From a virus, in IMG/VR virus record IMGVR_UViG_3300045988_058553, positions 119,095 to 183,094 of that record: a stretch of 64,000 nucleotides of DNA. One strand, 5' to 3'. The position numbers were made by a program, and so were the translations under genes. Below are positions 21,132 to 64,000 of this stretch, in pieces. Under the pieces are notes generated by a model. The model searched no databases. It saw only the letters and a program-made list of their open reading frames with translations, and had not been told where the DNA came from. Numbering within the stretch: position 1 is the stretch's first letter; every line of letters starts with the position of its first letter.

Positions 21132-21767
21132 TTACTCTGGAAGTATGCCGTACTTCCATATGTAGCCATAAGCATGAGTTATTTTATGATTGCAACAATC
21201 AGTGATATGTCTTTTGCAATTAACAGTTTTTGCTAGACCATTATCTACAAGCCATTTAGCTGCTTCCTCTCTTCCCCAGAAGTGCTATATATAATTGCCA
21301 GCCATATCAAATTGATCGATTTTCTTAGCAGACCCACCTCTGATTTTAATGCTATGAGCTTTCAATACCTTTCTTACAGTATCATCACTACATCCCACTT
21401 TCTCTGCAACTTTTTTGCAAGTATATCCCATATTGTATAGTTCGATTATCTCTTGATAATCATATAACTATGTTCCGTCTCCACCCTTAGTAGCATTATA
21501 GCCTTTGGAGCCATAAGTTTCCAACTCTTTTATCCAATATACCTCTCTTTCTGAGAGTATGTTTTCATCCTTTACATATTCTAATTCCTCTACTATAAAG
21601 TTTTCAACTCCATATTTATTCATAGCATCATATAATGGACGTTTTTCACATCTTTCTTTTCGAGAATCCTTGCAGTGTTCCTAAAATCTTTCCTATGTAG
21701 TAAAGAGGGTTTTACCAACGTATCTTTTATTGTTGATAATATTTGTAATGCAATAGATATATCCCAT
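21132..21767 (-). CDS. GIY-YIG homing endonuclease (copy A, 5 in-frame TAG codons)
   Basis: Starts MGYIYCITNIINNKRYVGKT (GIY-YIG) and contains KYGVENF...GYNATKGGDG. The only internal stops are TAG. Ends at TAA. Confidence 0.55.
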
Positions 21768-21824
21768 ATCATAAATTATTTATAACATTATTAATAATTG
21801 ATTGAATTAGCTTTACCCAAAACA

Positions 21825-25800: not shown

Positions 25801-26451
25801 TTAAACCCTTCTCTAACATAATATGGTGATTCGGACATAACCTCCGCAGGATTTTGCTTTTCCTACACAACAATCAATTATATGATTACTAGCAGAGTGT
25901 CTACTCTTTGATTTTCCTACTTCAACTAGCCAATCTGCGGCTTTCAGAGAACCAGGAAATTCCTAAATTTTGTTTCCAGCTTTATCATACTGAACAACAA
26001 TTCTACATTCACGTGCCTATTTATTAGCTCTTCCATCTATTCCGTGAGCTTTTAACACTAAGTACACAGTTTCCACTGAACAACCAATCTTTTCTGATAC
26101 CTCTTTACATAAATACCCTAAGTTATATAATTCAATAATTTCCTTGTAGTCATACAATATCTTCCCATCACCGCCTTTAGTGGCATTATATCCATCTTTA
26201 TAAGACTACAGTTTGTTTATCCAATATATTTCTCTATCTGATAGGGAGTTATCATCTGCTTCCTCTAGGCACTCAACTATGAAATTCTCAACCCCGTACT
26301 TATTCATGGCATCGTACAATGGTCTCTTTTCACATCTTTCCTTCTAACTATCTTGACAATGTTCTCTAAAACGCGCTTGTGGGTTTTGCGTAGTCTTTCC
26401 TACATAGCGCTTATTGTTAATCAAGTTTGTAATACAATAAATATATCCCAT
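25801..26451 (-). CDS. GIY-YIG homing endonuclease (copy B, in-frame TAG codons)
   Basis: MGYIYCITNLINNKRYVGKT...KYGVENF...GYNATKGGDG, with the C-terminus homologous to copy A. Four internal TAGs, terminates at TAA. Confidence 0.5.
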
Positions 26452-26492
26452 AATTTTCTTTTTTTATTAAACATTTAGTTTTAATCCAGAGT

Positions 26493-26506: not shown

Positions 26507-26523
26507 TAGTTTAATACGAACTC

Positions 26524-26570
26524 CTGGACCTAACGGGAGTCGAACCCGTGTCCAAACAACCCTCGTTACA
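26524..26570 (-). pseudogene. tRNA 3'-fragment (T arm + acceptor TAGGTCC-A) without a 5' half
   Basis: ACGGG-TTCGACT-CCCGT followed by TAGGTCCA. The same acceptor 3' strand occurs in the fragment at 32,906. Confidence 0.35.
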
Positions 26571-27126
26571 AGGATAACGTGCGTCTCATTTTTATTACAT
26601 CAGCTAGGGAGTTCTAGCATTTAGGTAGTTTTATAAGTCTTACAAGAGTCCATACTAAGTATTTCTCTAGATGCTTATCTACAAGCTACCAAACTATAGG
26701 GCTGACCGAAGTCAACGTTCCACCACTCCATTTACGTTGGAGAACGGGATGATACTTTAGAGATTCGTCACATCTCACGGAACACATCTTCCATCTGTTT
26801 TATGACGTAGGAGATTCAGTCTTACTAACTCTTAGAGTGTTCTGATTAAGAGCATATTACTAGGATTAGAGCCTAGCTCTCCATTATATCAATATACTCA
26901 ACCTCTTCTGTTTCTAGGTCTCTCCCGTAACCCGACTTAGTTAATAGTGTTTACCAACAAGCCAGCAGCTTAGGCTGCCATTCTTACTTCGCTATAAGTA
27001 GCATTTATTGTTTTTTCTTCGTTTAAAGAGATTGCGCTCTACACGTCCTTATAATTTGTAATCGCCTGTCAAATCCAAGTAGGCCCATACCCAGTTTATC
27101 TTTAATTAGAAAACTGGAAAAAGAAA

Positions 27127-28970: not shown

Positions 28971-29043
28971 TGGACACGCAGGGACTCGAACCCTATCTTC
29001 CGGTGTGCAAAACCAGCGCTCTAGCCATTTGAGCTAACGGCCC
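28971..29043 (-). tRNA. tRNA-Ala(TGC), aberrant acceptor base
   Basis: D arm GCTC/GAGC, anticodon arm CTGGT-TTTGCAC-ACCGG, T-loop TTCGAGT and a G3:U70 pair. Acceptor pairs 5-7 are mismatched, so this may be a pseudo-tRNA. Confidence 0.4.
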
Positions 29044-33537: not shown

Positions 33538-33657
33538 AATTAAAAATTCAATCCAGAAGTTGTAGGGACGGTGGGGTTTGAACCCACGTGCGACCGACTA
33601 CCCTTTCTACAAGGTATAAGCTTGAGGGGATACGTCCCTATCTGACTCATAATTAGT

Positions 33658-34384: not shown

Positions 34385-34398
34385 ATTTGTTAAGTTTG

Positions 34399-34470
34399 TT
34401 GGGCTACTAGGACTCGAACCTAGACTGACAGAATCAAAATCTGTAGTGCTAACCATTACACCATAGCCCA
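34399..34470 (-). tRNA. tRNA-Gln(TTG)
   Basis: Perfect acceptor TGGGCTA/TAGCCCA (U1:A72, Gln-like), anticodon arm ACAGA-TTTTGAT-TCTGT. Near-identical scaffold to the CTA suppressor at 51,273. Confidence 0.65.
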
Positions 34471-35684: not shown

Positions 35685-37643
35685 TTACTTCACTTCTTCA
35701 AACTCAGTAGCTTCTACTTGCTTCTTTCCGAACATTTCCTTTACTGTGTCAGCGAAAGGAATAGAACGTAATAAGTCAAGAGCAGGATTCAAGTTCTCAG
35801 CAGTCTTAGCCATGAAATTACCAGCGGTATTCTCATTACCATAAACAGTAACCTGTCCAAGGTGAATGTGTTCAAACATCTGAGCAGATGCCTGAGCAAT
35901 ACCGGCCAATTGGTCAACAGTCTTGTACTGAACCACCATTTGTGGAGTCAAGCCAGATTCAATCATCTTCTCAACTGCCAAGGCTGGAGCCATTTCGATA
36001 GCTTGAACCTTATCAGCTTCTGCCATCAATGATGCTCTCTTACCTTCAGCTTCAGCAAGCAATTTCTTGCGAGTACCTTCTGCCTCTGCTTCTAACTGCA
36101 GTTTAGTAGCGTCAGCTTTCGCTTCTGCTTCTTTCAAAATCTTTGCAGCTTCTGCTTCTGCTTCCAATACCGCTTTGGCTTTAATTGCTTCTGCTTCAAT
36201 AGTTACTCTCTCTTTTTGTTTCTGAGCAGGAACAATCATTTCAGCTTGAAGTTTTGCTTCCTCTGCCTTAGCAGCAGCTTCGTTAACCTCAATCTGGCGT
36301 TCTTGTTCTGTTTTGGCTACAGCCATTCTTGCTTCTACTTTAGAAGTACCAGCTACCTTTTCTGCTTCAGCTTGTGCCTGTGCAGCTTCTCCTTTTGCCT
36401 TTGATACTTCAATAGTTGCTTTCTGCTCAGCTACTCCAGCTTGCTTGTCAGCTTCTGCAGCCTTAATTCTCTTCTGAGACTCATACTCTGCAGTAGCAGC
36501 TTCTTGCTCATTAATTGCTTTCTGAGTGTCTGCTTCCTGCTTTTGCTTAGCTTGAGCAATACGAGTTTGCTTCAGAGCTTCAGCTTCAGCTTTCTTAGAA
36601 TCTGCTTCTGCCTTAGCTTTAGCTACATTAGCTTCTGCTTCTGCGTCAGCAGCAGCTTTCTTAGAAGCAGCCTCTGAAGCGGATTTCGCTACATTAGCTA
36701 TTCTCTGAGATTCAGCTTCAGCTTTAGCTGATTCTGCTTGAGTGTTTGCACGAGCAATACTAGCTTCTTGTTCCGCCTTCTGTTCAGCGATACCAGCTTG
36801 TTTGTTCTTTTCTGCTTCTGCCAAGCGAATAGCTTTCTCCTGATTAATCTCAGCAACCTTTACTTCCTGTTCTTGCTTAGTTTGAGCAACTGTAGTTTCT
36901 CTTTCCTTTTCAGCATCGGCTACGGCAATCTCACGCTGTTTGTTGGTTTCTGCAATCTGAATATCTCCTTTCTTCTTCTCTTCTGCAATGTCAGCCTGTG
37001 CCTGAGCAAGAGCTTTAGTTGCAGCTTTCTGACCAAGATTCTTGATATAGTTTGCATCGTCCGAGATATCAGCGTTGTTAATATTGATAATACTGAAACC
37101 TACCTTGTTCAACTCAGTTTCAATATTCTCTTTTGCCTTGCCGATAAATTTGATTCTATCAGCATTTATTTCCTCAATCGTCATTGTTGCCATCAAGCTT
37201 CTCACTTCACCAATGAGAATATCCTTGATTTGGTCTGAGATTTCAGAAGTTTTAGCTGTTAAGAATCTGCTTGCAGCGTTTTGCATTAGTACTTGATCGG
37301 TTCCTATACCAGTAGTTAATGTCACAGGAATCCTAACCTTAATCATTTGGCTGGATACTCCCTCTACCATTACCTGAATCTGAATAGGTTTCAAGGACAT
37401 TTTAGCCCAGTCTTGAATGACAGGCATTACGAATGTACCTCCGCCGTGGATGATTTTAGACGGCAGTATAACTTCCTCCGTTTTACCAGTCTTCTCGTTA
37501 ACTACCTTCTTCTTTCCTGCCTTACCAAATACTACCAGGATTTCATCACTAGCACACTTACGATACCGAGACAAAAGTCCGATAAAAGTTACAACTACTA
37601 AGAGTACAATAACACCCGCTACAATAAGAGTTTCTGTTGTCAT
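35685..37643 (-). CDS. flotillin/SPFH (band-7) family membrane protein
   Basis: N-terminal TM helix, SPFH-like region, then a ~350-aa Ala/Glu/Lys/Gln coiled coil (AEAE...KAEA repeats) and a flotillin-like C-terminus. Confidence 0.55.
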   Translation of the reverse strand: MTTETLIVAGVIVLLVVVTFIGLLSRYRKCASDEILVVFGKAGKKKVVNEKTGKTEEVILPSKIIHGGGTFVMPVIQDWAKMSLKPIQIQVMVEGVSSQMIKVRIPVTLTTGIGTDQVLMQNAASRFLTAKTSEISDQIKDILIGEVRSLMATMTIEEINADRIKFIGKAKENIETELNKVGFSIININNADISDDANYIKNLGQKAATKALAQAQADIAEEKKKGDIQIAETNKQREIAVADAEKERETTVAQTKQEQEVKVAEINQEKAIRLAEAEKNKQAGIAEQKAEQEASIARANTQAESAKAEAESQRIANVAKSASEAASKKAAADAEAEANVAKAKAEADSKKAEAEALKQTRIAQAKQKQEADTQKAINEQEAATAEYESQKRIKAAEADKQAGVAEQKATIEVSKAKGEAAQAQAEAEKVAGTSKVEARMAVAKTEQERQIEVNEAAAKAEEAKLQAEMIVPAQKQKERVTIEAEAIKAKAVLEAEAEAAKILKEAEAKADATKLQLEAEAEGTRKKLLAEAEGKRASLMAEADKVQAIEMAPALAVEKMIESGLTPQMVVQYKTVDQLAGIAQASAQMFEHIHLGQVTVYGNENTAGNFMAKTAENLNPALDLLRSIPFADTVKEMFGKKQVEATEFEEVK

Positions 37644-37658
37644 CTTTAAAAATTCTTT

Positions 37659-38186
37659 TTAGTTAAAATAATACTTTCCATTCTCAAATTTTGAAATTCT
37701 CACTTTGTCCCCGTTTTTATACGTCTTATGCTCTTCTTCAGCATAAGCTGACAATTCTTGAAGCATTCCATTTATCTCAACTAAGATAACAGAACTACCA
37801 CCAGAAATATCATTAGGGATAGTGATTGTTCCAATTCTCCCAACTAAGGCTTCACCCTTTTCAGGAATAACTTGATGTTGGAGTTTTAAACAAAGTTTAT
37901 ATAAGTAGTAAAGTATAACCACAAAAAGAATACCGCATATTAATGCGATTAAATAATCGTACCATTCTATAGAATGAGAAACGGAATGCTTAATACAAAG
38001 CCATCCACTTGCTCCCATTACAAAATGTACTAGTCCTTTAAAAGAGACAATATCACTCACATCCATGTCCAATTCTCCATCTAAATCTACATCTAAGTCA
38101 GTGTCGCCACCAAACCAAGAGAGTATGAACTGAACAATAAAAATGCCATACGAAATGGCTGCTAAGAGATAATAAGTTTCGCTCAT
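37659..38186 (-). CDS. NfeD-like membrane protein (SPFH partner, OB-fold C-terminus)
   Basis: Multi-TM N-terminus and a soluble C-terminal domain, encoded immediately upstream of the flotillin-like gene. This matches the classic NfeD-SPFH operon arrangement. Confidence 0.45.
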   Translation of the reverse strand: MSETYYLLAAISYGIFIVQFILSWFGGDTDLDVDLDGELDMDVSDIVSFKGLVHFVMGASGWLCIKHSVSHSIEWYDYLIALICGILFVVILYYLYKLCLKLQHQVIPEKGEALVGRIGTITIPNDISGGSSVILVEINGMLQELSAYAEEEHKTYKNGDKVRISKFENGKYYFN

Positions 38187-38533: not shown

Positions 38534-38794
38534 TCATTTGTTTAGTACTCTTCTTTTAACTACTCCTGTTCCATTACACATACTACACGATTCGGTATCA
38601 CAAAGAGCACCTGGACCTAGTGTAAGGATGCCTAATACAACTCTAGACCCAGCTGACATCTTTACTTGACCAATTCCATCACAATTTGGGCAATATATCT
38701 CTTCATACTTTATGGTATCAGTTTGATTGTGATTTACTACCTTATCGTGTGTGCATGAGGCAAGCAATAGTAGAATTACAATTAGTCTAGCCAT
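38534..38794 (-). CDS. small lipoprotein with CxxC motifs
   Basis: Signal peptide plus lipobox LLLASC, and two CxxC pairs (CPNCDG, CSMCNG). Confidence 0.4.
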   Translation of the reverse strand: MARLIVILLLLASCTHDKVVNHNQTDTIKYEEIYCPNCDGIGQVKMSAGSRVVLGILTLGPGALCDTESCSMCNGTGVVKRRVLNK

Positions 38795-39342
38795 TTAAAT
38801 TCTCCTACATTGAAGTGTCTGGCAAAACAAGCATCAAACACTAGCTTTCCAAACTGAGTTGACACATATTTAGCAATCTCTTTAGATTTGCACGCAAGCA
38901 TCCCGACATTGGAATAGGCACGGCCGACGCCAACGCTAGAATTGAAACAGCCGAGACCCGCATGGCCGCCATTAGCCGCGCCGCCGCCCACCAGCGCGAA
39001 TTTCTCGCCCTGATAGCTGAAATGTCCAATAACCTCCGCATCTTTCGGCACTGATTTCATTCTAAAGAACCGAACCCAAGGATACCATACAGTTCCAGTT
39101 AATAGATTAAACTTATGTCCTTCGTTTAAGGCATCAATAATTAATTGTAGCCTAGAGAGGGATTCTATAGATTGGTTTTCTCTCATGTATGTAGCAAGAC
39201 ATACTCCCATCTCGTTGGTAGCGTCCGTGAAGGATTTTATCCTTTCTGTAGAGCTACTAGGAACAATTTCTACTTTTCCAGTCTCTGCATTGTAAACTGG
39301 TTTGTAGCCATCTGGACATTCAATTTCAATAGTTCTTTTCAT
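38782..39342 (-). CDS. DGR variable protein 2 (remote target, contains VR1)
   Basis: 186-aa ORF. Residues ~LVGGGAANGGHAGLGCFNSSVGVGRAYSNVG are encoded by the GC-rich variable repeat at 38,902-38,994. Confidence 0.55.
   Translation of the reverse strand: MKRTIEIECPDGYKPVYNAETGKVEIVPSSSTERIKSFTDATNEMGVCLATYMRENQSIESLSRLQLIIDALNEGHKFNLLTGTVWYPWVRFFRMKSVPKDAEVIGHFSYQGEKFALVGGGAANGGHAGLGCFNSSVGVGRAYSNVGMLACKSKEIAKYVSTQFGKLVFDACFARHFNVGEFKWLD
38902..38994 (-). repeat. DGR variable repeat VR1
   Basis: Aligns codon-for-codon with the TR at 63,759-63,854. Every difference falls at a TR adenine, and non-A positions are identical. Confidence 0.8.
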
Positions 39343-39456: not shown

Positions 39457-39921
39457 TTATTCAAACAACGGCAATAACTTTTTACCAAGAATCTTTACCG
39501 CTTTCTGTGCATCAGCTACAGTTCTAAAATAAACAATACCTGGATATTTTACGTTTTGATGCATGACGACGTACACTCCTTTTATATCAGTTTCCGTCTT
39601 TCCAGATAGAGAAGAACCTTTTCCAAGAAAATAGCCAGTATTACCTTCTGTTTTGATCCATCCTTTATTTAGATAGTTAGCAACTATTTGTAAACTAGCT
39701 AGAGAACTGAGTTGTTCTGTCATGCTTGGAGGACATACTAATGTATTCCAAAAACCATAATCTTCTTCAGACTCTACTATCTCTTTAAAGGAAGGAATTA
39801 GCATTTCCTCACTAAATGCAGTAAGAGCTAATTTCTTCAAGTCTTCATTACCGCTTTCATACCATTCGCGTGCCTGCTCTAAAGTTACCTCAAGATAGGC
39901 TTTTGTCTTAATTCTATTCAT
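39457..39921 (-). CDS. hypothetical protein
   Basis: 154-aa ORF. Confidence 0.4.
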   Translation of the reverse strand: MNRIKTKAYLEVTLEQAREWYESGNEDLKKLALTAFSEEMLIPSFKEIVESEEDYGFWNTLVCPPSMTEQLSSLASLQIVANYLNKGWIKTEGNTGYFLGKGSSLSGKTETDIKGVYVVMHQNVKYPGIVYFRTVADAQKAVKILGKKLLPLFE

Positions 39922-41490: not shown

Positions 41491-42117
41491 TTAGTCTCTG
41501 AACTTCCACTTGTATTTATAGGCAGTTTTTGATTTGCCTTTACAACAGTTAGATATTTTCGAGAATCCTGTGTTATTTTTAGCGAAACCATTGTCACATA
41601 ACCAATTCATAGCTTCTGCAATACTATAAAAAGTTTGAATATAATTTCCAGCTAAATCATACTACATAACTATCTTTGAATCTCCTTTTCTAAGTTTTAC
41701 ATTATTTGTTTTTAGTACTTTGTAAATAATATCTTTACAACATCCTACTTTTTCGGAGATTTGTTGACTATTATATCCTAAGTTAGCTAGCTAAATAATT
41801 TCTTTATAATCATAAAGAATAGTACCATCTCCACCTCTGGAAGCATTATATCCATTAGAGCCATAAGTTCCTAATTCATTTATCCAAAAGATTTCTCTTT
41901 CAGATAATAGATTCTCATCTTCTACTTGCTCTAATTCTTCTATTATAAAGTTCTCTACACCATATTTATTCATGGCATCGTATAATGGACGCTTCTCGCA
42001 TCTTTCCTTTTGTGAATCTCTATAATGCTCTTTGAGACGTTCTTCTATAGACTATGTAGTTTTGCCTACATATCTTTTGTTATTAATTAAGTTTGTAATA
42101 CAATAAATATAATTCAT
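41491..42117 (-). CDS. GIY-YIG homing endonuclease (copy C, in-frame TAG codons)
   Basis: MNYIYCITNLINNKRYVGKTT-Q-SIEERLKEHY...KYGVENFIIEE...GYNASRGGDG. Three internal TAGs, ends at TAA. Confidence 0.5.
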
Positions 42118-42166
42118 AATTTTAGCTTTTAAGTTAGTTTGTAGATTATTAGCGTTACCCGAAACA

Positions 42167-42180
42167 CACCACGTGGAGGT
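42167..42180 (-). promoter_or_regulatory. conserved motif ACCTCCACGTGGTG upstream of GIY-YIG copy C
   Basis: Same 14-mer. Here it lies 19 nt after the tRNA-Pro 3' end. Confidence 0.4.
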
Positions 42181-42198
42181 TATCTACTTTAGTGTTTC

Positions 42199-42271
42199 TC
42201 TGGATAGCAGGACTCGAACCTGCGGTCTCTACATCCCAAATGTAGCATCTTACCAACTCGACTATACCCAG
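42199..42271 (-). tRNA. tRNA-Pro(TGG)
   Basis: C1:G72 start (Pro-like), perfect anticodon arm CTACA-TTTGGGA-TGTAG, T arm GCAGG-TTCGAGT-CCTGC. Confidence 0.6.
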
Positions 42272-46218: not shown

Positions 46219-46347
46219 AAATATTTAATTTTTATTTATAGAATACTACACATTTGTTTGCTAAATAGCAAGTATTTTACACTACGTAGGTAGACTATTC
46301 TACCTACCGCTCTCCGCCTAAAGCCTATTTATACTCGCGAAGTCGAG

Positions 46348-46683
46348 TTAGAATGTTTTGTATCCGTACTTTTGCAAAACTGATCTTAAATCACTTAGCG
46401 ATTTCCTTCCAACACCAGGCATTTTCATGAAATCACGCCAAGAATAGTTTTCCATGAAAATGTTGAGAGAGATATAAACTTGATCATCCAACATAGCTCT
46501 AATACGGCTAGCTGTCCTAGGTTGCATTTCTGGAAGAATACTCGCCAGTGTAATGTTTCTATTTTTCCTTTCAAGTGCTGTAATCTCTGGATAAATACCT
46601 AAAGACCATAATACGGAACAAAGTAAATCAGCCTCTCTATCAGAGAGAACTTTTGTTGTTTCTAGAATTTTTATCTCTTTCAT
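46348..46683 (-). CDS. helix-hairpin-helix DNA-binding protein (RpoA alpha-CTD-like)
   Basis: C-terminal MPGVGRKSLSDLRSVL resembles an HhH / alpha-CTD motif. Confidence 0.35.
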   Translation of the reverse strand: MKEIKILETTKVLSDREADLLCSVLWSLGIYPEITALERKNRNITLASILPEMQPRTASRIRAMLDDQVYISLNIFMENYSWRDFMKMPGVGRKSLSDLRSVLQKYGYKTF

Positions 46684-47767: not shown

Positions 47768-47914
47768 AGTCAAAATGGAAATTAATAAAATAAGCAAAGG
47801 GTAACGACTAGACCTTCCTGTGCCACAATACTTTGAGTTATTTCACAACAACTGCATAGTCTCAGGGCATACCCATTATGGTCCGACAATAATATGAATA
47901 CTGCAACTTAGTAG

Positions 47915-57207: not shown

Positions 57208-59568
57208 ATGCCTAGAAAGAAAAAAATATTACCTGAAGAAATCTAGAATATAGTAGATTAGGTAAGAGAGAAAGAACAAAAAGAGGATGCCAAAGAAGCT
57301 AGAGAACTAGTATAGAAGATAAGAGAGGAAAGGGGCAAAAATGCTGATTATTGGGATGTAAAGAGAGGAGATAAGATAGAGGTATTTGACCCTACTTTAT
57401 CTTATGAAATAACTGGATATAGACCAATAGATGAAACACATGGTCTTGACTTCGACCCAGATTGGTTTACTGAGACCAGAGAAGTGTATAGAAAAACTGG
57501 AAAGTATTGTCCATATCTAAAAGATAGTAAGAGATATAATGAGTTTTGGAAGGAATAGTATAGAAGATGTAAATATGGAATGACTGTTAATGGTTATACA
57601 ATTACTGGAGATAATTATTTCTTCCTAAACTTCTACTAGCTTCCTATTATTGATGATAACAAGGCATCTGGAGAAGGAACAAGTAGTGACTTTCCTATAT
57701 TTTTCGCATCTCATTATATGTTCTTTCATTATCTATAGATGGCTAGAGTTCTGCATAAACACGCAGCTCTTATGAAAGCTCGTTCTATTGGATTCTCCGA
57801 AATAAATGCGTCCTTATCTGCAAGAATGTATTCAGTAATCAGAAGAAGCAGAGTAATGATTACCTGTTTTAATGATACCTTCCTTAAAGGTACTTTTAGT
57901 AAGTTTGATAATGCTTTAACATTCTTGAATACTTGTACAGGAGGAGGATTCTTCAAACTACGTTTGATTGACCAAGACTTAAGAAAGAAGTCTGGTAAAC
58001 AGATTAAGGTAAACGGACAGTTTGAGGATGTTGGATTTAAATCAGAAGTAGTTGGAATAAATGGAGCTAAGGCATCTAATATTCGTGGAGACCGTGTTGA
58101 CCTATTAATATACGATGAAGCGGGGTCTTGGCCCGGACTAGATACTGCTGTAGTGCAGGGACAAGAGCTTTGTGAAGTTCAGGGTAAACCTCGTGGAACA
58201 ATGTTATTTGGAGGTACTGGTGGTGATATGGGTGCTCCATTAGCAGGTCTTAAGAAGATATATTATAATCCAAAAGCTTACAAAGTTCTTCCATTTAGAC
58301 ATAATTATACCCAGGATGGGACTACTATTGAAAGTGGGTTCTTCATTCCATATTTTGTCTAGTCTCTAAATTCAGAATACATGGACCATAGAGGTGTATG
58401 TAATACAGTAGAATATAAAAAGTATCTATAGGAAGAGCGTGACAATTTATTAGCAGTTCCAGACGACTATCTAAAGAAGTGTGCCGAACGATGTTGGAAT
58501 GCAGAAGAAGCATTTAATCTTGAAGGTGTTAACAAGTTCAACAAGATTCTTATTGCGGACCAGTTAGCTAATATAAGACTTAAGAAAATAGGACCAAGAC
58601 CAGAATCTGGATACATAGACTACTTCTATAAAAACAATAAACACACCTAGGATAACATAGATGGTTTTAAATGGATTCCTAATATTAACGGAAAAGTAAA
58701 AATACTTGAACATCCTGTATGGTCTGATTTGTATAAAGAGTAGATGGATAAACTTAGATAGGAAGCCGAGGAAAGGGGAGAAGAATTTGAATCTCCAGCG
58801 TACAAAGAAATGCATGATTTATATGTTGCAGGAATAGACGGTATTGATATAGGAGCTAGTCAAACTTCAAAAGAAACAAGAGATCCTTCTGATTTCTGTA
58901 TAACTATAAAAAGAAGAGCATTTGGTCTAAACGAACCGTAGTATGTTGCTATGTATAAAGACAGACCTAATGACGTTAGAGAAGCTTATAAAATAGCTAT
59001 GTGTTTAGCTAGATACTATAATTGTAGAATAAACATAGAAGCTACCCGTGTAGGTATGATTACCTGGGCTAGAGAAAAGGGTTGTTTAAACTACTTTATG
59101 AAAAGACCTAGAGCTACTCTAACAGACGTTAAGAATGGAACTACTAAATAGTATGGAACACCTGCTACCAAAACTATTATAGAACAACATACTGATTTGA
59201 CTGCAGCCTTTATTGAGGATTTCTGTCATACTATATGGTTTGAAGAAATGTTAGACCAATTTACTGGATATAATGATGAGAATAAAGGTAAATTCGATAT
59301 TGTAGCCGCTGTAGGAATGACAGAATTGGCAGACTAGGAATTGTCAGGAAGATAGCCAGTGCTTGTTGAAAAAGAAGTTGAACAATTCCAAGATTATGGT
59401 TATTATTACGACGAGAGAGGAATCAAAAGATTTGGGGTTATACCAACTTCTAAGACTTTTGAAACTAACATACAAAAAAATGAATACGATGACCCATACA
59501 GAATTGAAACAAGTGATCCTAGGTTATATGAGAGACTTGTACAAAATGGAATACGTAGGTGGGCTTGA
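57208..59568 (+). CDS. terL: terminase large subunit (many in-frame TAG)
   Basis: Track ORFs 57,739, 58,951 and 59,359 are all in one frame with ATG 57,208 when TAG is read as sense. Walker-B-like LLIYDEAGSW and a Walker-A-like KARSIGFS. About 787 aa. Ends at TGA. Confidence 0.55.
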
Positions 59569-59824
59569 AATTCAGAACCTAGATCCAGTTGGTTATAAGG
59601 TATCATTTAACTTTGATAGGTCAGAGATGCCTTTAGTCATTATAGCTGATTTACCTGATGAAGAATTTCTCCCATTTATAAAGGAAGAATTAAGAAGTAG
59701 GAAGTTACAAAGAGTTAAATACTATAATGCAACTAAACTTCCTCCAGAACAGCATAATTTATGTTATGAAAGAAAAAGAACTGATAGACAAGACGAACGA
59801 GGCTATTGCGGAGCTTGTATATGA
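59531..59824 (+). CDS. hypothetical protein overlapping terL 3' end (alternative frame)
   Basis: Internal ATG of track ORF 59,363-59,824 (MRDLYKMEYVGG...). Overlaps both terL and the next gene, so it may not be expressed. Confidence 0.2.
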   Translation, partial: RDLYKMEYVGGLEIQNLDPVGYKVSFNFDRSEMPLVIIADLPDEEFLPFIKEELRSRKLQRVKYYNATKLPPEQHNLCYERKRTDRQDERGYCGACI

Positions 59825-61937
59825 TAAGTACGAATTATAGAAAGCCTATAATTACTATAACGGAAAGAGAGACCCAGAATAGTTTCGTTACCTGGAAGAA
59901 AACTTTGGAATAGGTAGTCCTACTTCTGTAGAATTTACACCATTACTAAAAAAGCACGTAGATGCTCTAGTAGGGGAATATCTAGGAACCCCTATCCTTC
60001 CGAAGATTTCTTGTAAGGATTCAGATACCATTAGTAATATCACCAGAGAAAAGTAGTTAGAAATAACTAAAGGGATAGTTAAATTTCTTAGAGACCATTT
60101 AAGTAATTCTATTCTGAAATTTATCGACGGAAAAGATATTACAGATAAAGCCGTGAAGACTTAGTTAGATAAAATTATTCAAGACATTGATTAGTCTTTT
60201 ATTTCTCAATATGAGATAGCTGCATAGAATATTATTCATTATATCATGTAGTCTAGAGAAACTGATTTAATAACTAAACTCCGATAGTTACTTACAGATT
60301 TATTAATTACTGGCTATACATTTTTCAGAGTAAAATCATCATCTTCTGGAACTAACATAGAAATAGAAGTTCTGAATCCTTTAAATACTTTCGTAGATAG
60401 GAATCCAGAATCTCCATATGTTAAAAATTCGTACAGAGTAGTAGTTAGAAAATGGATGAGTAAAAGCTAGATATTAGCTAAATACGGAAAAGAAATCTCT
60501 AGAGAAGATTTGAAAAGACTAAAAGACGAATGGAGAGCTGATGATTCGGCTGCAGTTTATAGAAGAGTTTATGGTGACACTTGTACTATAGTAAATGAAG
60601 ACTAGAATCATGAAACTATTCCTGGATATCCAGATAATGAATATAGTGCTCATAGATTTTAGTTAATTCCTGTTTATGATGTAGAGTGGATAGAAACTGA
60701 TGACGATTTTGTGATGTAGAGATACAATACTATTAGAATTGGAGAAGAAATATATATTCTGAGAGGTCTAGACAAGACTGTTATGAGGTCAAAAGATAAT
60801 CCTAATTTCTGCTCTTTGTCTGTGAATGGGGTATATTTTTTAAATCGTTCTCAACAACCATACTCCCTGATATTAAAATGTGCACATCTATAGGATAGAT
60901 ATGACTTGTTAAATTATTATAGGGATAACCTGATAGCTAACAGCGGTACTGCTGGAGTAATCATGGATATGTCATTGCTTCCTACTAACCTAGGCGTAAA
61001 ATGGCCAGAAAGAGTGTAGAAATGGTTAGCATACAAGAAGGGTGGTATCATGTGGATTGATTCCACTTAGGAGGGAAGAAATGACGGAGCGCAAGCACCT
61101 AACTAGATATACAATGGATTTGATGATACCTTAAAAGCTTAGGCTGTATAGGCTATTGAATTAGCAATTCAATCAGTAGAACAAACTACATCATCTATAA
61201 CTGGAGTATTTAGAGAAAGATTAAACGGAATAGAGACTCACGATGCTGTAACTAATATTAAGCAAGGTGTTACTAACTCTTACATAGTAACCAAGCATTA
61301 TTTCTAGTAGATGGACCTAATCACTTGTGAGATATTATTGGATAGTCTAAACTAGGCTAAAATAACATATAAGAAAGGATTGACTGGTACTATTATACTT
61401 GGAGATAAATACTAGCAGATATTTACAGCGCTTCCAGAATATTTTACGGTTACTGATTATGACATCCATATAACTTCTAGCTCTGAAGTAATGGAGGATT
61501 TACAAACTATTAAAGCTATTATTCCAGAGTTTGTTAAAAGTCAGCAAATGGATCCTGACATCATATTTGAAGCACTAACTGCTAAGAGTCTTACAGACCT
61601 TAAATATAAAGTTAAGAAAGCAGTATAGATTCGTAAAGAAGAAAACAATTAGCTATAGCAGCTATAGGAAAAACTGGAAGAAACTTCACAATAGGCATAG
61701 CAGTTATAGCAAGAACTATAGAAAGCTTAGTAGAAGATAGAAAGTTTGGATGAGTAGAGATTAGGATTAGAATAGCAGAAAATGTAGTTAGAATATAAGG
61801 TTAACTGGCTAAAAGTTCAATCCGATTCTACGTATAAAGATAGACAAATGGATATAGAAGAAAAGAGAACTGAAATAGAGTTGGCTTAGCTTCACGATGG
61901 AAATCCATATAATGACAAAATAAGACAATTATATTAA
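59766..61937 (+). CDS. putative portal protein (about 30 in-frame TAG)
   Basis: 723-codon frame from ATG 59,766 to TAA 61,935 with only TAG interruptions. Q-rich C-terminus if TAG=Gln. Size and position after terL suggest portal. Confidence 0.4.
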
Positions 61938-62132
61938 AATGGGAACAATTTGGATAGAAGGCAATTTAAAAGTTTGGCAAGGCCAGTGAAGATTATTTCT
62001 GAACAAGTCGAAACTAAAAAAGCTTGTATTTTATTAGAAGATAACAAAAAAGAGTCTAATAAAGAATCTTAGAATAAAAGTTATTAGAATGGAGATTATT
62101 AGAAAAATAACACATGGATTAAATAAGGTACA

Positions 62133-63680
62133 ATGGCAACTGATATCAAAATATCTCAAATGCCTTCTGCTGGTAAATTATCTGGAACTGAAATAATTCC
62201 TATTGTACAAGATGGAGTTAATAAATCCTCAACAGTAAATAAAATTAGAGAAGGCTTAGTTACTAATAATAAATTAGAAGAACAGATTAACACTCTTAAC
62301 TCTTCTTTGGGAGAGCTACAAAAAGAGCAATAGAGTCTAAGTAAACAAGTCACAGAGTTAAGCAGTAACGTAGACTTATACTCTTATGGAGTAGAATGGG
62401 ATATCACCGTATCTTCTCCTATCCTTACTAGAATAGGAAACCCACTGTTACATAAATCCCTCCCTATTTAGTCTGCTTACAGAGGATGTGTAGCAAATAA
62501 CGGTGTGGTAAATTACTATTTACATCCAGACGATTGGGCTTACAAAGAAGATGGAAGTACCCCTTCTGTGCTCGATGGAACTGATGGAACTGTAAGAGTT
62601 CACACTCCTAAATTTTATGGTAAATCAGGCTCTAATGGAAATAAAAGATGGGTTAGAATTTCTCTAGTAAAGCTTGATGATTCATGGGTAGAAATACCAG
62701 AACTATTAATTGACGCATATAGAAATACCGTTGATAATACTGTGTCAGCAACCCCTAAAGCTGTGTCCGTGGTCAATACTACAGAAGCATTTAGAGGTGG
62801 TGGAAATAGAGCACAATTCGATAAGTATCTAACTACTGAACTTGATACCAAAGATGCTTTTAGAAGCGATTTAGGAAAACCTAGAACTAATGTTTCTAGA
62901 GCTAATATGAGAACTTATGCTACAAATGCAGGTTCTGAATTATTATGCTATGAATATTATAAATGGATATTCTACTGGAACTATGTAATAGAATATGCTA
63001 ACTTTAACTCTCAGGCTGCCTATAATGCCGAGCTTACTTCTAATGGTTATCGTCAAGGAGGACTTGGTCCTGGAGTTACAGACTGGAGTAACTCTACTAC
63101 AAGTTGGTCTGGATATAATGGAACTTATCCAATAACGCCATGTGGGTATTGTAATGATATTGGTAACTTCACTGGAATCAAAGATTTAGTTATTCCAGAA
63201 TGTACTGCAACAAACGAAGCAGATATAGTAGCGACTAAGACATTTAAAGTTCCAAGATGGAGAGGTTTTGATAATCCATTTGGAGATATTTGGACAAACC
63301 TAGATGGAGTAGTTATTCAAAGAACTGCGGCAAATGAAATCAGTAGTGTATATACTACCACAAACAAGGAAGAGTTTACTGACGTAATTGGCAATAAGAC
63401 CGTAGCAGGATATGAGGTAGCGCAAGATGGATACATTAAAGAGTTTGACTTGGGAGAAACGGCAGAGATTATACCATCTTCTTGTACTGGAACCTCAACT
63501 ACAACTTATATGTGTGATTACCACTATTGCAACGTTAGCTCTACAGCGCTTCGCACGCTGCGGGTGGGCGGCAGCGCGGATGGTGGCGGCGGTGCGGGTC
63601 TCGGCTGTTTCTATTCTAACGGTGGCGTCGGCGTTGCCGGTTCCTCTGTCGGGTTCAGGACTCTGAATAGAGTATCTTAA
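62133..63680 (+). CDS. tail-fibre-like DGR variable protein 1 (contains VR2, 2 in-frame TAG)
   Basis: Track ORFs 62,133 and 62,505 are one frame via TAG. The C-terminus ...VGGSADGGGGAGLGCFYSNGGVGVAGSSVGFRTLNRVS is typical of CLec-fold DGR targets. Confidence 0.6.
63558..63653 (+). repeat. DGR variable repeat VR2
   Basis: 32 codons, in frame at the 3' end of the 62,133 gene. 29 substitutions against the TR, all at TR adenines (codons 3-32). Confidence 0.85.
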
Positions 63681-63758
63681 GATATACAATATAAAAATCG
63701 ATTTAGATGATAAATCGTAGGATATTACTTCTAAAAACCGTTGATTGGCAAAAAAGTA

Positions 63759-63854
63759 CTGCTAGTAGGCAGCAACGCGAATAATGGCAGCAATGCAGGT
63801 CTCAGCTATTTCAATTCTAACAATGACGTCAGCAATGCCAATTCCAATGTCGAG
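63759..63854 (+). repeat. DGR template repeat (TR)
   Basis: A-rich and AAT/AAC-codon-rich cognate of VR1 and VR2, 79 nt downstream of the target gene's stop. Confidence 0.85.
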
Positions 63855-64000
63855 TTATTATATATTTAGAAACATTTTATTATTTTTTTTTAGTTTGCTA
63901 AGTAATATCCTTGCCTCTAGGCAAAAAATAACGTAGTGTTGAATGAAGGGTGTTAGTAGGTTATCTCGAACGCTTCCGATGAAATATATAAAAAATTGAA

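Follow-up and report, generated by a model that had tools for sequence, protein, structure and literature searches.

The right-hand end of a 64,000-nt stretch of viral DNA (IMG/VR virus record IMGVR_UViG_3300045988_058553, positions 119,095 to 183,094; the whole stretch is called the window below) raises the question of whether a diversity-generating retroelement (DGR) is encoded there, and whether a single template repeat (TR) of this element feeds variable repeats (VRs) in two different genes. An earlier note on this DNA had proposed both. We find that the element is almost certainly an active DGR, judging from the comparisons of related sequences described below, and very probably that of a ~183-kb zeta crAss-like phage. 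The DGR interpretation was borne out by adenine-specific differences between TR and VRs and by a reverse transcriptase (RT) gene found on the window's own contig. The view that there are two targets, one tail-fibre-like and one small protein in trans, was likewise upheld, since a single TR serves both VRs.

The TR is located at 63759..63854 on the + strand, is near-invariant among relatives and has its adenines between 63764 and 63853. VR2 (63560..63653, + strand) lies at the C-terminus of a tail protein that ends in ...VGFRTLNRVS*, and VR1 (38902..38995, - strand) is internal to its gene, on the strand opposite to the TR and 24.6 kb distant from it. TR positions 63761-63854 (64 non-A and 30 A positions) were scored against every position on both strands of the window. 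VR2 has mismatches at 25/30 A positions and 1/64 non-A positions, and VR1 at 21/30 A positions and 0/64 non-A positions. The next-best site in the window has 32/64 non-A mismatches (median 49), and no third VR was found along either strand. Over the slightly longer range of 63759-63854 (66 non-A and 30 A positions) Fisher tests of A versus non-A positions gave p = 4.6e-17 for VR2 (25 A and 1 non-A changed) and p = 3.6e-12 for VR1 (21 A and 2 non-A changed). The only non-A change in VR2 is 63763 T>G, at a site that is T/G polymorphic in relatives and is found at the ragged 5' edge of the tract. The positions given in the earlier note for the three repeats stand, but its count of 29 substitutions, all at adenines, becomes 26 in 63759-63854 with one of them at a T. 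Its statement that VR1 differs from the TR only at adenines holds over 63761-63854, where the homology starts, but not from 63759 onward. The TR adenines fall at codon position 1 in 14 cases, position 2 in 13 cases and position 3 in three cases, with AAY codons predominating.

Both an RT gene and an avd gene had been expected past position 64,000. The contig was extended beyond this point to seek the RT, on whose presence the DGR interpretation depended, and a 424-aa RT was indeed found. It begins with a TTG start codon at 63996, just inside the window, after a 141-nt spacer that follows the TR (read on contig ena:ERZ27260978:k119_131173). Only its first five nucleotides (TTGAA, 63996..64000, + strand) are within the window, and the rest of the 424 codons lies past it (L099:11864-13138). 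The protein matches the profiles RVT_1 (8e-20) and phrog_1423 (7e-110), and its closest solved relative is the BPP-1 bRT (8ub7, 3.9e-43), in which IGSLTSQ aligns with IGNYLSQ and YMDD with YADD of this RT. The two features typical of DGR-clade RTs, motif 4 of the form [I/L/V]GxxxSQ and a YxDD box, are therefore present as IGNYLSQ and YADD in a gene next to a TR. Assignment to group II introns, retrons or Drt was rejected, with scores far under the curated cut-offs of those families. No avd gene was found near the cassette: there is no open reading frame (ORF) between VR2 and TR, where 78 nt of non-coding sequence follow the stop codon, and among the four genes after the RT one matches only PHROG families of unknown function and three match none. 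The Avd accessory protein is common in DGRs without being universal. Its absence is reportedly usual in the DGRs that zeta crAss-like phages carry, where all but two genomes lack avd (PMC12386605).

To see how the element varies among relatives, 80 RT-related loci were taken from IMG/VR, ~70 of which had enough upstream sequence to show the gene order. The order VR, TR, spacer (105-180 nt) and RT is kept in ~70/80 of these loci, and independent assemblies in several projects have yielded dozens of contigs with the same arrangement. Across 69 TR/VR pairs adjacent to an RT, the two repeats differ at 69.9% of the A sites, as compared to 1.0% of the non-A sites. Thirty-eight viral contigs were found to contain the VR1 gene, and at least 31 of these also hold the RT, at a distance of 25-30 kb. 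In 35 alignable VR1 copies from related contigs, 74% of the A sites differ from the TR, as against 0.57% of the non-A sites. Most of ~30 related genomes have an identical TR, and 36 distinct VR2 sequences from relatives are variable at the same A sites. In both VRs, each of the four bases is found at AAY sites. VR1 and VR2 are different in nearly every related genome, though the flanks are 85-99% identical. The same picture emerges at the protein level: in 120 VR1 proteins the variable residues are limited to those specified by A-bearing TR codons, and residues from AAY codons are hypervariable, with up to 14 residue types.

The direction of transfer can be read from rare variants of the TR. 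Contig 059915 has a T>C change in its TR at 63766, and the C is present in both VR1 and VR2. In contigs 065173 and 061465 the TR carries four C>T changes, and all four are found in both VRs. Information therefore passes from one TR into both targets, and the transfer took place after these TR mutations arose. An adenine-specific TR/VR pair, an invariant TR accompanied by VRs that vary between genomes, and directional transfer from TR to VR, by which membership of the DGRs was judged, are thus all present at this locus.

The TR adenines fall into two classes. Twenty of them, in AAY or TAT codons, take all four bases in the VRs and are the randomised sites. The other ten, which stand before G or in GAC, are G in >90% of VRs, except 63767 and 63826 (67-100%); where they are not G they are A, and C or T is almost never seen. 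Positions 63764, 63767 and 63797 are synonymous third positions, so selection at the protein level cannot explain their G bias. Counted over 66 distinct TR/VR pairs (L019-L098), adenines before G gave G 357 times, A 20 times, T once and C never, and at four-fold degenerate third positions the counts were 77 for G and 3 for A. The second positions of AAC and AAT codons also differ from each other in their base spectrum, despite coding for the same amino acids. The effect of the 3' neighbour on insertion opposite adenine has been measured for the BPP-1 RT (2026, PMC12875486). The average misincorporation in that study is ~31%, and the near-complete A-to-G change seen here is stronger. The near-deterministic outcome at ApG is left unexplained by the known neighbour effect of BPP-1.

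The region between TR and RT encodes a structured RNA (63906..63995, + strand). The earlier note had pointed out a hairpin, TTGCC-TCTA-GGCAA, at about 63,911; it is located at 63911-63924 and proved to be helix P1 of a conserved, covarying RNA. RNAalifold analysis of 17 diverse spacers from this RT lineage gave three helices, P1 (63911-63915/63920-63924), P2 (63948-63953/63972-63977) and P3 (63959-63960/63966-63967), with compensatory changes in 7/12 pairs and with the junction motifs UAGUA and GAA kept. In the same 17 diverse DGRs, 96.6% of cells are paired, and sliding the partners lowers this to 35-53%. Covariation scores 0.58, as compared to at most 0.13 in the slid controls, and 0/500 shuffles reach 0.58. 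The Rfam family RT-17 matches 63907-63993 with 29.1 bits (E = 0.0014), which is below the gathering threshold of 40.4 that defines membership, and RT-18 matches more weakly; the RNA resembles RT-17. Weinberg et al. (2017) located the motif RT-10 of BPP-1 in the stretch that separates TR from RT, and surmised that other DGRs are served by other RT motifs (PMC5737381); this locus agrees with their guess. The spacer RNA may recruit the RT and set the priming site. The orphan RT-17/18-like motif gains a likely role as a DGR spacer RNA.

On the target side the signals are less clear. The homology between TR and VRs ends at GTCG(A/G)G, and the only fixed difference at the 3' end is position 63853, where the TR has A and each of the 70 VRs examined has G. 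A hairpin at 63654-63667, right after VR2, was considered as a target signal of the BPP-1 type and rejected, as it is broken in most close relatives and not kept in distant ones, and no target-side hairpin common to VR2 and VR1 was found. Another hairpin with a 7-bp stem, CGATTTA-GATGA-TAAATCG (63699..63717, + strand), starts 19 nt past the stop codon of the tail protein gene. It has undergone a compensatory change to CAGTTTA/TAAACTG in L001-L006 and may mark a transcript end or form a structure on the target side. No T-run follows it, and it was rejected as a conserved part of the DGR because it is not kept in distant relatives.

The gene that contains VR2 (62133..63680, + strand, stop codon TAA) directly follows the portal gene and encodes a tail protein of 515 aa, which matches phrog_5302 'tail protein' (1.1e-86) and whose exact product is on record as P0271. 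Its description in the earlier note as one tail-fibre-like gene with a C-terminal VR2 holds, on condition that two in-frame TAG codons, at 62331 and 62469, are read through (as Gln); only then is the gene a single ORF. Profile searches of the VR2 target family against PDB sequences and Pfam (E up to 1) gave nothing relevant. The protein has 515 aa here and 606 aa in most close relatives (P0272 and others), whose N-terminal part is longer and different. Over the C-terminal 430 aa the identity to the relatives is 93-95%, the differences being in the region of 62133-62400, and this suggests an N-terminal module that may be swapped among relatives.

The gene that contains VR1 (38782..39342, - strand) encodes a 186-aa protein, has no TAG codons and is found between tRNA genes in an accessory island. 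The protein family has 227 representatives at 50% identity. Profile comparison of the two target families showed homology over the 39-residue VR segment, and none was found beyond it. Both targets were modelled with a view to the C-type lectin (CLec) fold. The AlphaFold2 model of the VR1 protein is confident (pLDDT 89.3, pTM 0.76), with the VR as a long, low-confidence loop (residues 125-153), and the model matched only uncharacterised homologues in BFVD and no known fold. The VR2 protein, modelled from a shallow alignment, reached a pLDDT of 27, which is unusable. The VR1 family has no Pfam match (E up to 1) and nothing relevant in a profile search of PDB sequences. The scaffold would thus be one of ~190 aa with no Pfam or PDB relative, in which the VR is predicted to form an internal loop followed by two helices. 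The VR peptides of both targets had been said to end in a CLec-like VGFR motif. This is true of VR2 only; VR1 ends in ...SNVGMLACK, after which the gene continues for another 40 codons. In other phages (L079-L081, L086 and L088) a protein of the VR1 family is the cis target adjoining TR and RT, and the family thus recurs as a DGR scaffold.

The window is 100% identical to parts of the human-gut contig named above (183,094 bp; 20,561 nt in L017 and 11,868 nt in L099), and a megablast search of 56000-64000 against GenBank phages gave no match. The late genes are on the + strand from ~56 kb, with TerL (57208-59568) and the portal (59727-61937, a match to P22_portal) followed by the DGR target. 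TAG codons occur in frame 36 times in the portal gene, 15 times in TerL and twice in the tail target, and are absent from most - strand genes; without read-through of TAG the late + strand genes would be broken up. The suppressor would be a tRNA (51273..51345, + strand) whose anticodon is CTA. It is derived from tRNA-Gln and is identical to the phage tRNA-Gln(TTG) at 34398-34470 in 55/73 positions. TerL is 26-28% identical to the TerL of Crassvirales, and a close relative, OMGK01000003, has TR-spacer sequence in common with this phage; its entry in the supplement of Yutin et al. (2021, PMC7886860) reads zeta_4, TAG|q, Sup CTA. The features expected of zeta crAss-like phages, i.e., a crAss-related TerL and portal, a genome of 150-190 kb, recoded late genes and a suppressor tRNA, were all found. 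On the grounds of TerL kinship, TAGs in late genes, the CTA tRNA and the listing of OMGK01000003, this is most likely a phage of the zeta_4 crAss-like group that reads TAG as Gln. The host is probably a member of the Bacteroidota, and scans for sigma-70 promoters and terminators are uninformative given such a host. A second suppressor-like tRNA, at 47914-47984 (- strand), has anticodon TTA and would read TAA. TAA is nonetheless a genuine stop: the DGR target ends with it, and reading TAA and TGA as stops leaves TerL and portal whole.

The RT gene itself carries five in-frame TAG codons, one of which encodes the Gln of the IGxxxSQ motif. This codon is TAG here and in 12 other distinct RT orthologues, and CAA or CAG in 17. 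TAG occurs in 12 columns of the RT alignment. Five of these, including that of the SQ motif, have Q alone in all other orthologues, and a sixth has Q in 20/22. Residue 334 of the RT is encoded by TAG in this genome and is Trp in 28/30 distinct orthologues, and in another genome TAG replaces Trp at residue 310. In all other TAG columns the codon alternates with Gln, Asp, Lys, Glu or Arg, and these two cases may represent tolerated Gln substitutions or sequencing variants. As the RT has five in-frame TAGs (and the tail target two), full-length RT would need the amber suppressor derived from tRNA-Gln. The activity of the DGR is in this way tied to stop-codon recoding, the RT being a protein that could not be made without the amber suppressor of the phage.

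Several observations weigh against the interpretation as an active DGR. All evidence of activity comes from comparison between genomes and not from reads within a sample. No avd gene was found adjoining the cassette, in a check that covered the gap between VR2 and TR and the four genes after the RT rather than the whole 183-kb genome. The near-fixed G at ten ApG or GAC adenines, synonymous sites included, is not predicted by random A-to-N mutagenesis. There is no GC-rich initiation of mutagenic homing (IMH) site like that of BPP-1 (no GC-rich 14-mer), and the fixed G at 63853 could equally be the result of selection for Gly. The CLec fold, finally, was demonstrated for neither target, either by Pfam and PDB profiles or in the VR2 model with its pLDDT of 27. 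The first three of these points, as well as the TAG at RT residue 334 where nearly all relatives have W, would also fit a relic, i.e., a cassette that once diversified both genes and is now inactive, the A-specific differences being its fossils. A relic is nevertheless difficult to reconcile with VR1 and VR2 sequences that differ in nearly every related genome between flanks of 85-99% identity, with recent point variants of the TR that are found in both VRs, and with an RT ORF that every relative has kept intact, all catalytic motifs included. We consider it very unlikely.

It might also be that VR1 is not a target, and that its likeness to the TR stems from shared ancestry or gene conversion with VR2, with ordinary diversifying selection behind its variability. 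VR1 does lie far from the TR, on the other strand and in an unrelated scaffold, its homology to the other target is limited to 39 residues and it has no terminal GFR. Yet it matches the TR of this genome at every one of the 64 non-A positions, in relatives almost all of its differences are at A sites, it tracks the TR variants of its own genome, and the same protein family is a cis target by TR and RT elsewhere. This makes the explanation highly improbable, more so than a relic. Chance or low-complexity similarity, or an artefact of assembly, can be practically disregarded; nothing was found in favour, while the best background site has as many as 32/64 non-A mismatches and the arrangement recurs in contigs assembled independently in several projects.

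With an active DGR as the preferred reading, the mechanism could be as follows. RNA containing the TR and the structured spacer, probably continuous with the RT message, would be bound by the RT encoded downstream. The cDNA would then replace the homologous tract in two genes, changing the C-terminal tip of the tail protein (VR2) and an internal loop of the small protein (VR1). About 20 adenines in AAY or TAT codons would be randomised in the process, and the peptide diversity would be at most ~1e16 if all 30 TR adenines are counted as free. Diversification is probably confined to the phase of infection in which suppression is on. The priming site, the mechanism of integration, the timing of expression and the ligands of the targets are matters of inference.

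The island around the VR1 gene contains tRNA genes, a protein resembling the CPD of tRNA ligases, HNH and GIY-YIG nucleases, and an SPFH protein with a membrane partner. The VR1 gene, without TAG codons, has tRNA and repair genes for neighbours on the early-gene strand, and an export signal in its product is not obvious by eye. It is conceivable that the VR1 family represents a new, non-CLec DGR scaffold whose members would act as cytoplasmic, early and hypervariable binders in the conflict between phage and host rather than as receptor-binding virion proteins, and we put this forward as a speculative and rather unlikely proposal. If it were true, the VR1 protein might for example counter variable host defence proteins. 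The ligand of the protein would reveal what phages must keep re-recognising besides receptors.

Across a tRNA-His gene from the VR1 gene, the gene at 39457-39921 (- strand) encodes the N-terminal domain of the same family without a VR (hhalign probability 93.5%, E = 2e-7), and looks like a non-diversified paralogue of the VR1 protein. Just downstream of the VR1 gene, at 35685-38186 (- strand), are the 652-aa SPFH/Band 7 protein, a long part of which consists of Ala/Glu/Lys-rich repeats (tandem repeats at 36085-36776), and then a membrane protein of 175 aa; the two resemble SPFH-NfeD pairs. A repeat of ~285 nt is present in three copies with 63-76% identity (21513-21797, 26200-26481 and 41863-42147, - strand) inside TAG-rich ORFs. 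The ORF at 41491-42234 that bears one of the copies matches GIY-YIG (PF01541), and these ORFs, spread among the tRNA genes, probably encode homing endonucleases. Several RNAs could also be identified. A Pistol self-cleaving ribozyme (46280-46348, - strand, 63.3 bits) and a RAGATH-14 RNA (48011-48217, - strand, 156.6 bits), both above the gathering threshold, are located in the accessory region near the suppressor tRNAs. A match to the Rfam tmRNA model at 26522-27086 (- strand; 57.6 bits, gathering threshold 47) spans 565 nt as compared to the 374 positions of the model and is absent from the ARAGORN output; it may represent a phage-encoded tmRNA, possibly with an insertion. Two extra tRNA-like Rfam matches, at 28971-29043 (- strand, 39.5 bits) and 33563-33639 (- strand, 31.6 bits), are not in the ARAGORN list either.

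The system is not of a new kind, since DGRs from zeta crAss-like phages (2025) and a DGR with two targets in Quimbyvirus (2021) have already been published. DGRs were reported in 18/43 zeta crAss-like genomes, with amber-interrupted RT genes, a GxxxSQ motif and CLec tail-fibre targets, and CLec domains were modelled in the tail-fibre proteins (2025, PMC12386605); Yutin et al. (2021, PMC7886860) did not discuss DGRs. These elements share with ours a genome of ~183 kb, a CTA suppressor and amber recoding, as well as the tail-fibre VR-TR-RT layout, a long TAG-interrupted RT with GxxxSQ and the lack of avd. They were described with one VR per cassette, whereas there is a remote second target here, and neither a spacer RNA nor a TAG-encoded Gln in the SQ motif is mentioned, both of which are present here. 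The DGR of Quimbyvirus ('Quimbyviridae', PMC8008677) also has one TR and two targets, one of them structural and near the RT. Its distal target is on the opposite strand in an accessory or counter-defence island that includes a tRNA ligase, comparable to the island described above. Quimbyvirus belongs to a different phage family, however, with a genome of ~75 kb and an RT made via frameshifts rather than TAG read-through, and both of its targets are reported to be CLec proteins, in contrast to the distal target here with no detectable CLec similarity.

The BPP-1 DGR (mtd-avd-TR-brt) resembles this element in its adenine-specific transfer from TR to VR, in having a target at the tail-fibre tip and in its RT, the closest one with a solved structure. 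It also has a spacer of ~140 nt between TR and RT, for which a structured RNA has been proposed (Rfam RT-10; PMC5737381). Unlike BPP-1, the element described here lacks both an avd between VR and TR and a GC-rich IMH, and it has two targets instead of one; its spacer RNA is RT-17/18-like, and the RT and one target need amber suppression. The Rfam motifs RT-17 and RT-18 (PMC5737381) have the same P1 (CCUUGCC-loop-GGCAAAA), the same UAGUAG...CGAA junction and the same place directly upstream of an RT gene. They were published with no function assigned, whereas the RNA here stands between a TR and a DGR RT, albeit with a score under the threshold. What this locus adds to the known systems is a second target for phages of this group, together with evidence that one TR feeds both, a target family without a recognisable fold, a Gln of the catalytic motif encoded by TAG and a spacer RNA supported by covariation. 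Together these make it a clean natural case of one template that serves a structural and a non-structural target, in a very abundant group of gut phages.

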